Assembly (NCBI GenBank): GCA_016840855.1
Contig: JAEORO010000060.1
Coordinates: forward strand, 1 to 64,000
Source: Candidatus Thorarchaeota archaeon
GTDB lineage: Archaea > Asgardarchaeota > Thorarchaeia > Thorarchaeales > Thorarchaeaceae
Length of the DNA: 64,000 bases
Direction of reading: 5' to 3'
Numbering within the stretch: position 1 is the first letter of the stretch; every line of letters starts with the position of its first letter. Under the pieces are notes generated by a model. That model was not told the DNA's origin. It searched no databases and saw only the letters and a program-made list of their open reading frames with translations. The position numbers were made by a program, and so were the translations under genes. Positions 9,785 to 60,357 of this stretch are shown in pieces.

Positions 9785-9893
9785 TGGTGGGCCCGGGGAG
9801 ATTTGAACTCCCGACCCCCGCCTTGCAGAGTGAAAGAGCTGAAGCTCAAACACGTATCAGAGCGGTGCTATAACCAGTCTAAGCCACGGGCCC
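9785..9893 (-). tRNA. tRNA-Ile(GAU) with 31-nt intron at 37/38 (9824-9854)
   Basis: GGGCCCG acceptor, CCGCT-CT-GAT-A[intron]A-GGCGG, GGGAG-TTCAAAT-CTCCC, encoded CCA. Confidence 0.92.
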
Positions 9894-14787: not shown

Positions 14788-15033
14788 TCAATTTTTCTTT
14801 AGGTAAAGCATCTGGCCAACCATTTTTGACGTGTCCAATCCAGATCGTGGGCGAACAGAAACATAAGGCTCCTTAACAGGTCCAAAGACATCAATGATTA
14901 CACCAACTTCTTGTGCTTTGCTATCAAGCACGACAGAGCGAGACCCCACGGATGGTGTTTTATCTGTACGTAGAATTATCGATCCACGCTTAGAAATATG
15001 AAGAACTTTTCCCAAACGCCTCAATAGACACAC
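14788..15033 (-). CDS. gar1: H/ACA RNP protein Gar1
   Basis: LGKVLH, VG.IIDVFGPVKEPY motif. Confidence 0.9.
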   Translation of the reverse strand: MCLLRRLGKVLHISKRGSIILRTDKTPSVGSRSVVLDSKAQEVGVIIDVFGPVKEPYVSVRPRSGLDTSKMVGQMLYLKKN

Positions 15034-44436: not shown

Positions 44437-44574
44437 GGGGTGGTGGCCTAGTTCGGTATGGCGACGGGCTCCAGATCTAGGTGCGTAACGCACCTGAATT
44501 GGACGGGGTCAATAAATGACCGTCGTCATGAAGACACTCGTCGATCGGGAGTTCAAATCTCCCTCACCCCACCA
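44437..44574 (+). tRNA. tRNA-Trp(CCA) with 61-nt intron at 37/38 (44475-44535)
   Basis: ACGGG-CT-CCA-G[intron]A-CTCGT, GGGAG-TTCAAAT-CTCCC, encoded CCA. Confidence 0.9.
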
Positions 44575-57623: not shown

Positions 57624-58295
57624 ATGAAAATCACGTTTCTGGGTCACGCATCGTTTAAGATTGAAGAGGATGGAAAGATTGTCTATGTTGACCCTTGGCT
57701 CACCGGTCCAACATCACCACTAACAGTGGATGATGTGGATGAAGCTGATATTGTACTTGTCACTCATGACCATGGTGATCACGGTTATGCTGAAGCACTA
57801 GGAATCTGTAAGAACACTGGAGCATACCTAGTTGCAATCAATGAACTCGCACATAAGGCGGGTTCACAAGGCGTTGAAAGTATTCACACTCTTAATATTG
57901 GAGGAAGCGTGAACATCGGTGGTGTGGTTGTAACCCTAGTTCAAGCATTCCATTCATCAGGTGTTGGAGCTCCAACGGGCTTTGTGGTAAGGTTTCCAAG
58001 CAGTACTTTCTATCACGCAGGAGATACAGGCGTATTCTCGTCTATGGAGCTTTTAGGAGAATTATATGGTCCAGTGGATGTCGCTCTACTACCCATTGGT
58101 TCATACTTCGTAATGGATATCCATCAAGCAGCTTTAGCAACGAAACTTCTCAAACCAAGAAATGTAATTCCTATGCACTATGACACATTTCCAGTCATAG
58201 AGGCAAATCCAGAGAAGTTCAAGGCTCTTGTTTCTGAAACAAGTCCAGACACAAAGGTGGTCATTCTCAAACCTGGAGATGAAACAGAAATCTAA
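57624..58295 (+). CDS. Metal-dependent hydrolase, MBL fold (UPF0173-like)
   Basis: LGHASF, DPW, THDHGDH, A.HSS, YHAGDTG, PMHYDTF. Confidence 0.9.
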   Translation: MKITFLGHASFKIEEDGKIVYVDPWLTGPTSPLTVDDVDEADIVLVTHDHGDHGYAEALGICKNTGAYLVAINELAHKAGSQGVESIHTLNIGGSVNIGGVVVTLVQAFHSSGVGAPTGFVVRFPSSTFYHAGDTGVFSSMELLGELYGPVDVALLPIGSYFVMDIHQAALATKLLKPRNVIPMHYDTFPVIEANPEKFKALVSETSPDTKVVILKPGDETEI

Positions 58296-58296
58296 G

Positions 58297-59045
58297 TTTA
58301 GATGGTGGTCGATGCCTGTAACCCTTCACACTAACTCCCAGAATCATAGCATCAGATGGTACATCTGGCTCCACTGAGCTGTCTCATGTTGGGTGCTCTG
58401 ACATCGACCGGCCTGCCAATGTACGAAACCGGGGTGACTCACTCTTCATCTAAAGGACAAACATCCCCATCAAGCGAGTCCGTTAGGGCTCGTCCTTTTG
58501 GTGCTTAGCAGGCATTTGTCCAAGATGTGACCCGCCCTATGCGCAACACCTCATTGGTATAACCTCAGTGCGCCCTCGAGAACGGGACTGAATACTCCTG
58601 AACATGAAAAATCTGTATTTCTATAGTTATTAGGATTATCACATGGCGCGAATCAGACCATTCTTGGTAGCAGCAGTGACTCTCTATGTAAGGCATCTAT
58701 GGCGATAACGACATCTTCAAATACGCTGGGGAATCAAACCCCGTGTATAGCACAAGTGATAGAGTCACAGCTGTGCTTTGTAAATCATCATATAATCATA
58801 TCATAGCGCCACGCGCTCCCGACTACGGACCCAAAGAGAATAGTCGGTGAGAGCACTGCGCAAAGTCTTCGGACTATTATCATTCACAGGATTATCATCA
58901 CGATTATCTTAGCATATGTTCGGGCATGGGTTTGAGTAGTATCATACAGGTCTTATTCCAATCATAGAATAGATGCATAGGCCAATCTGTGACAAGACGC
59001 AGGCGGAATCACCTTGGTCTGTAGGGCGAGAAAACGTGGCAGCAT
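58297..59045 (+). ncRNA. Candidate large multi-domain structured RNA or 5' leader upstream of dnaG
   Basis: No credible ORF; more than ten nested helices, several with G-U pairs valid only on +; cUUCGg tetraloop at 58867-58872; AUCAU repeat cluster. Ends are approximate. Confidence 0.65.
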
Positions 59046-59061
59046 AACATAGGAGACGTGC

Positions 59062-60357
59062 ATAGAAATAGGAACAGACTTCGACCAGAGTGCAGCCAAA
59101 TATGTCATTCGCGCTAGAATCGACATCGAAGGTGTGGTTGACAAACCTGATGTTGTTGGAGCTATATTTGGACAGACTGAAGGGCTACTCGGAGAAGACC
59201 TTGATTTACGGGAACTTCAGCGTACTGGTCGTATTGGAAGAATTCAGATTGTGATAAAATCAGAAGGTGGAAACAGTACTGGAGAGATTGTGATTCCAGT
59301 TTCGTTGAACAAGACTGCTACAGCGATTCTTGCTGCGTCATTGGAAACTGTTGATCGAGTAGGCCCATGCACTGCAAAAGTAACTCTTGAGAAGCTAGAG
59401 GACATAAGGGGTGCAAAGAGGAGAAAAGTAGTAAGCAGAGCAATTAGCATCTTGAAAGGATGGGAAGAAGATATCTCACCTGGTACTGATGAGATACAGA
59501 CTGCTGTTACTAAAGGGAGTAAAGTTTCGGTATCAAAATATGGTCCAGATAGCCTACCAGCAGGCCCAGGGCTGAATGAAAGCTCTGACATCATAATTGT
59601 TGAGGGTAGAGCTGATGTCATCAATCTCATGAAATGTGGAATAACAAACACAGTTGCTGTAGAGGGAACTCACATTCCTAAGAGTATTGTAGATCTCACA
59701 AAGAAAAGAGGAAAGAAAATCGTCGCTTTCCTTGATGGAGATAGAGGTGGAGACCTAATTCTAAGAGAATTAATGCAAGTAGCAAAAGTCCACTTTATTG
59801 CAAGAGCTCCGGAAGGAAAAGAGGTTGAGGATTTGACACGGAAAGAGGTCACAAAAGCACTTCAGGCTCAGATACCGGCTGACCAAGCACTCGCATTAGT
59901 AAAAGAGAGAAAGGTAACTCCAACAAAGAAAAAGCGACCAGGAAAGAAAGTCGCAAGAACTAGAAGGGAACCGAAGCTAGTAGGTGAATTTCAAGAACCA
60001 GAAATGGTTGATGAAGAACAAGCTCCAAGCCGTCGAAGAGCAGTGACGAGAAGAATACCAGTAACTGTTGATGAAGTATATGTTTCTAGAATTGGGAACA
60101 TTAAAGAGTCTTTCAAAGCTCTTCTGTTCGGAGAGGACAAGCAGGTCATAGTAGAATGTGGAGTAGCTGAACTAGCAAAAACTCTAGAAGAGCAAGAAAA
60201 GGTACCTACAATTGTATTCGATGGCGTAATTACACAACGACTAGTTGACATTGCAAGTAAGAAAAGGACTGAGCTGATGATTGGAGCAGCTGTTGCAGAT
60301 ATTGAAAATAAACCTAGTAGTATGAAGATTGTCACTTTTGATGACTTAGGTCATTAA
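59062..60357 (+). CDS. dnaG: Archaeal DnaG (TOPRIM primase-like, exosome-associated); probable ATA start
   Basis: KYVIRARI...GVVDKPDVVGAIFGQTEGLLG, LRELQ..GRIGRI, IIVEGRADV, DGDRGG, FDGVITQRL. Confidence 0.93.
   Translation: MEIGTDFDQSAAKYVIRARIDIEGVVDKPDVVGAIFGQTEGLLGEDLDLRELQRTGRIGRIQIVIKSEGGNSTGEIVIPVSLNKTATAILAASLETVDRVGPCTAKVTLEKLEDIRGAKRRKVVSRAISILKGWEEDISPGTDEIQTAVTKGSKVSVSKYGPDSLPAGPGLNESSDIIIVEGRADVINLMKCGITNTVAVEGTHIPKSIVDLTKKRGKKIVAFLDGDRGGDLILRELMQVAKVHFIARAPEGKEVEDLTRKEVTKALQAQIPADQALALVKERKVTPTKKKRPGKKVARTRREPKLVGEFQEPEMVDEEQAPSRRRAVTRRIPVTVDEVYVSRIGNIKESFKALLFGEDKQVIVECGVAELAKTLEEQEKVPTIVFDGVITQRLVDIASKKRTELMIGAAVADIENKPSSMKIVTFDDLGH

Follow-up and report, generated by a model that had tools for sequence, protein, structure and literature searches.

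What occupies the long gap directly upstream of dnaG in a Thorarchaeota genome? The question was raised by a 64,000-nt stretch of DNA from a Candidatus Thorarchaeota archaeon (GenBank assembly GCA_016840855.1, contig JAEORO010000060.1, positions 1 to 64,000; hereafter the window), in which ~760 nt separate a plus-strand gene for a 223-aa protein (57624–58295, with its stop at 58295) from the dnaG reading frame. An initial annotation of this DNA had seen no credible open reading frame (ORF) in the gap, which indeed holds only ORFs of ≤50 aa, and had proposed that the plus strand encodes a large structured RNA, ~750 nt in length, possibly split in two and belonging to a new class, or else a very long dnaG leader. 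Although real and under selection, this gap does not encode a single new-class RNA of 750 nt on the plus strand. It probably comprises two units, a small RNA of the H/ACA type encoded on the minus strand and, to its right, the upstream region of dnaG. For the small RNA gene, located at 58300–58603, we establish here its existence, strand, structure and conservation, its presence in RNA libraries and its promoter motif.

Two conserved blocks in the gap upstream of dnaG

When the gap was searched against Rfam at gathering thresholds no match was obtained, the whole window yielding only one 5S rRNA and two tRNAs, and the RNA described below is thereby unrecognised, as had been supposed, in addition to being conserved and structured. 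At E ≤ 10 only noise-level matches were found in the gap, with no RNase P RNA, signal recognition particle (SRP) RNA, intron or riboswitch among them. The lack of RNase P and SRP signatures, already pointed out in the initial annotation, agrees with the finding that both RNAs are encoded elsewhere in the genome, where archaeal covariance models scored 163.9 bits on contig C183 (RNase P RNA) and 87.7 bits on contig C216 (SRP RNA).

By blastn, the DNA of the gap matched 22 of the 24 other genomes of the genus and none of 16 genomes outside it. In relatives the gap always lies upstream of dnaG, the neighbour on the other side being variable. Alignment revealed two conserved blocks, at ~58300–58605 and 58625–58915, which are separated by an AT-rich stretch and the non-conserved positions 58655–58697. 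In one species an IS605-type tnpB gene (402 aa) is located exactly between the blocks, both of which are still conserved. A split of the gap near 58600–58640 had been considered from the start and is correct, the AT-rich linker being the promoter of the small RNA gene. Folding energy gave no sign of a single large RNA, as the whole 749 nt folded no better than dinucleotide shuffles on either strand (z = −0.86 on the plus and −1.23 on the minus strand).

Several non-RNA explanations of the gap were also considered. A protein-coding gene was rejected based on the short ORFs (≤50 aa), indels that are not multiples of three and stems that covary; a repeat or mobile element was rejected as the region is single-copy in its genome and contains only short internal repeats. 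A replication origin was considered because of the AT-rich linker and the repeats, and neither repeated origin-box-like elements nor a neighbouring cdc6/orc1 gene were seen.

A three-hairpin RNA on the minus strand

The left block encodes a three-hairpin small RNA of the H/ACA type, ~300 nt long (58300–58603, minus strand), as delineated by strand tests, a covariance model, covariation and metatranscriptome contigs. Its predicted 5′ end lies at ~58603 and its predicted 3′ end at ~58300–58306, with a T-rich tract following the last stem. The initial preference for the plus strand was wrong for this part of the gap: RNAalifold gave −81 kcal/mol and 87 pairs for the minus strand of the block compared to −45 kcal/mol and 56 pairs for the plus strand, and single-sequence folding favoured the minus strand in 23 of 25 relatives by a mean of 15 kcal/mol. 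The window's own 306-nt left part reached −108.8 kcal/mol on the minus strand (z = −1.98, with 4 of 100 shuffles as good) and −89.4 kcal/mol on the plus strand (z = −0.51). Furthermore, positions that appear as A-C mismatches on the plus strand are G-U on the minus strand, where they form intermediates between compensatory pairs. The minimum free energy fold of the single minus-strand sequence contained the same three domains as the structure based on covariation.

Hairpin 1 (58518–58603), supported by compensatory changes in its lower and outer stems among 22 family sequences, consists of an outer helix (58596–58603/58518–58525), a lower stem (58580–58584/58533–58537), kink-turn GA pairs (58565–58566/58551–58552) and an ACA (58527–58529); 6 of 21 genus sequences lack its inner part. 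Hairpin 2 (58411–58513), defined by alignment and covariation, has an outer helix (58505–58513/58411–58419), a lower stem (58487–58493/58423–58430), an upper stem (58472–58480/58436–58446) carrying a kink-turn of the form UGAU/AGAUGAA, and an ACA at 58420–58422 that comes after 13 nt of 3′ pocket and lower stem. The same kinds of evidence define hairpin 3 (58307–58409), which in a distant homologue aligns to hairpin 3 of the Rfam family HgcG; it comprises an outer helix (58400–58409/58307–58316), a lower stem (58391–58393/58322–58324 plus inner pairs), an upper stem (58374–58378/58337–58341), kink-turn GA pairs (58370–58371/58344–58345) and an ACA (58317–58319). The minus strand carries all of these elements. 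The additional, covarying outer helix encloses every hairpin along with its ACA, and the ACA is therefore a short (3-nt) link from lower stem to outer helix. Compensatory pairs account for 7 of 9 in the outer helix of hairpin 2 and 10 of 10 in that of hairpin 3, and the outer helix of hairpin 1 is also compensated.

The complementary segments from which the large RNA had been assembled all occur where they were reported, and a number of them belong to the minus-strand structure. The helix GGTCGATG/CATCGACC is the outer helix of hairpin 3, with its full set of compensatory pairs, CAGATG/CATCTG is supported by covariation, and CCCG/CGGG and GCGCA/TGCGC both fall in hairpin 1 with covariation support. 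Others found no support in relatives: the helix TTTAGATG/CATCTAAA, whose 5′ arm is variable and outside the RNA, GGACAAA/TTTGTCC, and the proposed long-range pseudoknot. On the minus strand, other, covarying pairs take the place of GCGAGTCC/GGGCTCGT.

Covariation and distribution of the small RNA

A covariance model of the 213-nt core comprising hairpins 2 and 3 (R1) scored 235.9 bits on the window at 58304–58516, minus strand. It matched 80 of 86 family genomes, almost always in single copy, and covered all 16 genera and all 23 high-quality genomes; the six family genomes without a match are 52–81% complete. The class has one other family, whose single genome R1 matched with 56 bits; when 151 genomes of the phylum were sampled, five weak full-length matches (21–42 bits) fell outside the class. 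Linkage of the RNA to dnaG holds family-wide, and in three genomes of another family it again adjoins dnaG in a different arrangement.

Among 39 homologues aligned to R1, 95.2% of cells were paired and 44 of 66 modelled pairs were compensatory, bearing out the conservation and covariation expected of a structured RNA in relatives. None of 500 shuffles reached any of the measures, and slid controls paired at 33–46%. This alignment was fitted to the model, which favours pairing; independent MAFFT alignments show the same compensations. In Thorarchaeota the RNA likely has a housekeeping role; its gene, mostly single-copy, is conserved throughout the class Thorarchaeia yet is wholly missed by Rfam-based annotation.

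Promoter and transcription

A BRE/TATA promoter (B recognition element plus TATA box), GATAATCCTAATAAC, is found on the minus strand at 58626–58640, ~31 nt upstream of the first stem base, and the small RNA would be transcribed from this box of its own. The TTATTAG core is conserved family-wide at a fixed ~21–22 nt from the RNA, separated from it by a non-conserved spacer. GATAATCCTAATAAC fits the GACAAT-CTTAAA type boxes of the tRNA, 5S, SRP and RNase P RNA genes in this genome, and the box of one tRNA-Glu gene is almost identical. The stable-RNA genes of the genome were generally seen to share this promoter, a GACAAT-like BRE followed by a CTTAAA-like TATA box ~32–39 nt before the mature 5′ end, and the consensus could help to locate additional RNA genes. 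The IS200/IS605-type insertion between the two conserved blocks (genome G009, locus L015, 1936–3290), with its TnpB-like ORF of 402 aa, lies directly upstream of the small-RNA TATA box.

Transcription was examined by a search of sequencing runs with a 951-nt query, of which metatranscriptome-labelled runs contained a small share of the words (5–9%). Contigs were compared from four such runs out of three studies, two of the runs being flagged as probably DNA. Short contigs from the four runs cover 58310–58593, plus one further piece at 58842–58908, and in run X2 a single 286-nt contig equals the RNA with 9 differences. No contig fell on either flanking gene; both of these genes and most of 58600–58840 are without contig cover, which is not evidence of silence there. 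The confinement of the contigs to 58310–58593 fits a discrete, stable RNA. The contigs themselves carry no strand information, and this weighs against the assignment together with the two runs flagged as probably DNA.

These data make it very improbable that dnaG is preceded by a single new-class RNA of ~750 nt on the plus strand, or by two RNAs on that strand. Such RNAs would account for the listed complementarities, all of which are present, for the empty Rfam search at gathering thresholds and for some G-U pairs that are possible on the plus strand. However, the minus strand is clearly favoured for 58300–58603, the left part has its own minus-strand promoter and the RNA-library contigs end at 58310 and 58593; the insertion of the IS605-type tnpB element between the halves in one species has left both halves conserved; and the helices closing domains 1, 2 and 4 of the proposed RNA do not covary. 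What holds of the original proposal is an unrecognised, conserved and structured RNA; its length of ~750 nt, its plus strand and its new class do not. The RNA is a member of a well-known functional class and not a new kind of RNA.

Probable assignment to the H/ACA class

All three minus-strand hairpins contain a lower stem, an internal loop (the pocket) and an upper stem, each supported by covariation. Kink-turn signatures are present at the sequence level as CACUGAGG/CCAAUGAGGUG, UGAU/AGAUGAA and UGGAGC/GCUAUGAUG, with GA dinucleotides conserved to at least 90% in all three hairpins. An ACA follows within 0–2 nt 3′ of the lower stem in every hairpin, and its A positions are conserved in 39 sequences for hairpins 2 and 3 and in 22 sequences for hairpin 1. 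Rules for H/ACA RNAs stated in the available part of PMC4652768 include a lower stem of 7–9 bp, an ACA 14–16 nt from the pair closing the pocket, and a GA stem of 8–11 layers, with 10 in productive folds. Hairpin 2 fits the spacing rules as given there, having its ACA at 14 nt and 10–11 layers from the pocket to the GA pairs.

The only Rfam family matched over the R1 locus, on the same strand and in distant homologues, was HgcG (Pab40, RF00064). Matches were obtained in 6 of 26 homologous loci (31.6, 29.2, 25.0, 23.8, 19.3 and 18.4 bits), four of them with E < 0.01, and in the alignment hairpins 1 and 3 of the HgcG model fall on the first and third domains of the distant homologue. The genome also encodes Cbf5 (421.7 bits; contig C183, 32492–33852), immediately beside, and in the same orientation as, the RNase P RNA gene, and an ORF with a Gar1 domain is found in the window itself (14791–15018, minus strand, 39.1 bits).

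With function inferred from this anatomy, we consider it quite probable that the 58300–58603 RNA works like an H/ACA guide. L7Ae would bind the three kink-turns and Cbf5-Nop10-Gar1 each lower stem plus ACA, and the two pocket strands would pair with RNA flanking a uridine, which would then be turned into pseudouridine. Several observations weigh against this assignment. None of the HgcG scores in homologues comes near the gathering cutoff of 77 bits, and the window's own RNA gave no HgcG match even at E ≤ 10. In hairpin 1 the ACA spacing is 12 nt with 10–11 layers, or 14 nt with 8–9, and in hairpin 3 it is 17 nt with 8–9 layers in an HgcG-like fold, or ~14 nt with 12–13 layers in an alternative one; each of these two hairpins agrees with the one rule or the other, according to the pair chosen to close the pocket. 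The Pfam model of Nop10 found nothing in the genome, which is 92% complete. As no homologue reached the 77-bit threshold, the RNA was not filed as a member of HgcG; over the whole genome the HgcG model found nothing at E ≤ 10, a threshold at which it also matches bacterial control genomes.

Assignment to the box C/D small RNAs was rejected. A weak snoR53Y-like match (58569–58649, minus strand, 21.9 bits, E 0.34) was the only indication; it straddles the promoter and the RNA's 5′ end, and the UGAUGA-like motifs of the minus strand have no conserved CUGA at box C/D spacing.

Comparison with known H/ACA RNAs

The closest known counterpart is HgcG, also named Pab40, Pf7, Pho40 or Afu4 (RF00064), which resembles the RNA described here in its size of ~280–320 nt and its three hairpins, as well as in the make-up of each hairpin, which includes a pocket, a 3′ ACA and either a kink-turn or a K-loop. 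In distant homologues, hairpins 1 and 3 can be aligned to the Rfam model, with pocket strands of the CGAGG and GUUAG types and the kink-turn strand GAUGA in common. In contrast, an enclosing covarying helix is present here on every hairpin plus ACA, whereas the Rfam consensus lacks it on hairpins 1 and 3, and the lineage is Asgard rather than Thermococcales or Archaeoglobales. As far as the available part of PMC2377435 describes it, HgcG/Pab40 is a three-motif box H/ACA guide of Pyrococcus with experimentally assigned 23S targets (2588, 1932 and 2016); these Pab40 targets, as listed there, could not be matched to the pockets of the RNA investigated here.

The canonical H/ACA motif of Pyrococcus and Haloferax, as presented in the available text of PMC4652768, shares with our RNA the succession of stem, internal loop and stem, the L7Ae kink-turn in the upper stem, and a lower stem of ~7 bp that is followed by ACA. 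The differences are that the ACA here links to an outer helix instead of standing at a free 3′ end or hinge, that hairpins 1 and 3 deviate from the 14–16 nt rule in a fold-dependent manner, and that no canonical guide-target duplex was found here.

Several guide hairpins with an ANA/ACA box 3′ of each are also a property of eukaryotic H/ACA snoRNAs, which have a hairpin-hinge-hairpin-tail organization, but the RNA described here has archaeal L7Ae-type kink-turns, three hairpins and enclosing helices, and no H-box hinge. Eukaryotic H/ACA snoRNAs function with the same protein core (Cbf5/dyskerin, Nop10 and Gar1), and Asgard archaea are the closest known relatives of eukaryotes. To our knowledge, guide RNAs for rRNA modification have hardly been described in Asgard archaea, and a search of the Asgard and Thorarchaeota literature on noncoding RNA, Cbf5 guides or ACA small RNAs (outside subscription journals and supplements) found no such RNA described. 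The enclosure of every guide hairpin in a further helix makes this RNA an architectural variant, which could bear on ribonucleoprotein (RNP) assembly, RNA stability or target choice.

Search for targets

The rRNAs searched were the 23S rRNA of a congener and the 16S and 23S rRNA of a confamilial genome; the genome's own 16S and 23S rRNA are not assembled, and the target search is incomplete for this reason. The searches used naive pockets, flexible boundaries with gaps and an alternative pocket for hairpin 3. A genome-wide motif search for targets gave chance-level results. Counting against a guide function, neither the congener 23S nor the confamilial 16S and 23S rRNA contained a canonical bipartite site for hairpin 2 or hairpin 3, and a search of 24 tRNAs, RNase P RNA, SRP RNA and 5S rRNA likewise yielded no target.

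Weak candidate sites were nevertheless obtained for hairpins 1 and 3. For hairpin 1, the family-consensus guide pairs at 10 of 11 positions with the 23S site CUUGC[UU]CCUCGA, where 4 of 300 shuffled guides were as good; the window's own hairpin 1 guide pairs at 9 of 11 positions of this site, where 37 of 300 shuffles were as good. For hairpin 3, complementarity extends over both sides of the 23S loop ACUAACU[AUGA]GUCUC, which we take to be helix 69, with 7 + 5 pairs. The latter pairing leaves 4 unpaired bases instead of 2, is matched by 19 of 200 shuffles, and involves a guide that does not track a compensatory change of helix 69 in another genus, all of which count against a guide interaction. 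A complementarity of 13 + 6 nt between hairpin 1 and 16S rRNA was rejected as the mirror of a GC-rich rRNA helix and not a pocket interaction, because both lower-stem strands are used; the 16S rRNA in question comes from a genome apparently without hairpin 1. The pocket sequences are nearly invariant across the class.

Could the RNA then be an H/ACA-like scaffold, with kink-turns and ACA, that is not an rRNA pseudouridine guide and acts in a processing or chaperone-like RNP? Its clamping helices and invariant loops would in that case serve the other role. The failure to find a canonical target in the available 16S, 23S and 5S rRNA, tRNAs, RNase P RNA and SRP RNA would be explained, and the near-invariant pockets across the class, the strong covariation of the extra enclosing helices, and the linkage to dnaG throughout the family and again in three genomes of another family are all in keeping with such a role. 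However, the genome's own rRNA is missing from the target search, hairpin 2 has exact guide geometry, weak candidate targets exist, and the related Pab40 has experimentally assigned 23S targets according to the available part of PMC2377435; a non-guide RNP is therefore regarded as unlikely.

An even more specific form of this idea sees in the clamped three-hairpin RNA an Asgard RNP built on an H/ACA scaffold, with a main function other than rRNA pseudouridylation. It is proposed because the pockets are without a canonical rRNA partner, the ACA is locked in helices and dnaG is adjacent in more than one family, and we hold it to be a long shot. If true, the RNA could be an archaeal forerunner of eukaryotic non-modifying H/ACA RNPs, for example in processing, and the RNP might couple functionally to DnaG and the exosome via the adjoining conserved AUCAU-rich dnaG leader. 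An H/ACA guide remains the preferred reading of the small RNA.

The 23S gene of the sister-family genome G025 (locus L065) was seen to be split into two model matches. Its second part exceeds the model length by ~880 nt, and unrelated sequence stands in place of the positions immediately ahead of the conserved motif after helix 69, suggesting an intron or insertion at this site.

The dnaG upstream region and start

The right block (~58640–59067) contains on its plus strand a promoter-like box, CGACATCTTCAAATA (BRE plus TATA; 58709–58724), which is the most conserved island of the right part family-wide. CGACATCTTCAAATA points to the right and is almost identical to the BRE/TATA box of a tRNA-Cys gene in this genome; judged from this sequence, a plus-strand transcription start is predicted near 58746. 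Small conserved hairpins, to which no strand was assigned, occur at 58727–58745, 58750–58776 and 58819–58847, with compensatory changes at the genus level that were identified partly by eye, and a hairpin of the right block is kept at the same place across the family with different sequence. Two clusters of ATCAT/GATTATCA repeats (58781–58804 and 58873–58911, likewise without assigned strand) are conserved family-wide, and GCGCCACG forms a further conserved island across the family. A single 158-nt contig of run X1 spans ~58767–58924.

The helices proposed earlier for this part fared unevenly. GGGG/CCCC and the adjoining hairpin at 58750–58776 are supported by covariation, and the covariation of CCGACTA/TAGTCGG was judged by eye only. 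The pairing GTGACTCT/AGAGTCAC has one arm within the non-conserved stretch, and TGGCGC/GCGCCA, which was to close domain 4, is invariant, without covariation, and has one arm upstream of the predicted start at ~58746.

The right block most likely represents either the dnaG promoter followed by a long structured leader (~320 nt), or a second small RNA of ~180 nt followed by dnaG. The long dnaG leader that the initial annotation had offered as a fallback fits this right-hand part. The gap would thereby contain a divergent promoter pair, directing the small RNA leftwards and the conserved dnaG leader rightwards. Two observations sit poorly with this picture: folding of the right block has no strand preference, the plus strand being favoured in 15 of 24 comparisons and in 12 of 25 (12 vs 13), and the hairpin at 58727–58745 lies between the proposed TATA box and the start, unexplained by a promoter.

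The second of these options, a separate plus-strand small RNA at ~58746–58925 with a promoter of the stable-RNA type, would leave dnaG with a short leader from a second promoter at ~58900–58940. The promoter-like box that nearly equals a tRNA promoter of this genome, the conserved hairpins within ~58746–58925, and the X1 contig (~58767–58924), whose depth is as that of the H/ACA RNA contigs with nothing over dnaG, speak for it. It is nevertheless judged doubtful, as the evidence of transcription is a single contig from one run flagged as probably DNA, no T-run terminator is visible before dnaG, folding is without strand preference and there is no Rfam match. Less likely still is that the right part acts only as DNA, the GATTATCA/ATCAT repeats and palindromes being binding sites of a regulator of the divergent promoters. 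The resemblance of the repeats to the BRE-like half of the promoters, the position of one hairpin between TATA box and predicted start and the absence of strand bias in folding would agree with such sites, but across genera the hairpins differ in sequence and are kept by compensatory changes, as expected for RNA stems and less so for sites bound by protein.

Downstream of the leader or second RNA, a ribosome-binding site GGAGA (59052–59056) precedes a likely non-AUG start of dnaG, ATA at 59062 or 59068 on the plus strand, as indicated by the reading frame and the alignment. The dnaG frame is open from 59053, after a stop at 59050, and contains no ATG, GTG or TTG before 59134. The annotated start, GTG at 59134, is not conserved, and the codons ahead of it specify conserved residues. 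Aligned across the family, the start position holds ATG, TTG, ATA or ATC behind a conserved GGAGA, and from sequence, dnaG thus seems to start at AUA (ATA 59068 or 59062). DnaG is an RNA-binding subunit of the exosome and a primase subunit, and the conserved leader and apparent AUA start are small leads on the regulation of this protein. In genome G020 (locus L008, 2092–2494), a stretch of ~190 nt upstream of dnaG, corresponding to ~58900–58980 of the window, was observed to be duplicated or interrupted.

Other RNA genes of the genome

The SRP RNA gene (contig C216, 1871–2179) gave a full-length match to the archaeal Rfam model at 87.7 bits, below the gathering score of 96.5, and standard annotation would therefore miss it. 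The two tRNA matches of the window, at 9788–9893 and 44437–44571, are 106 and 135 nt long compared to the 71 positions of the model; this excess length suggests that both tRNA genes carry introns.

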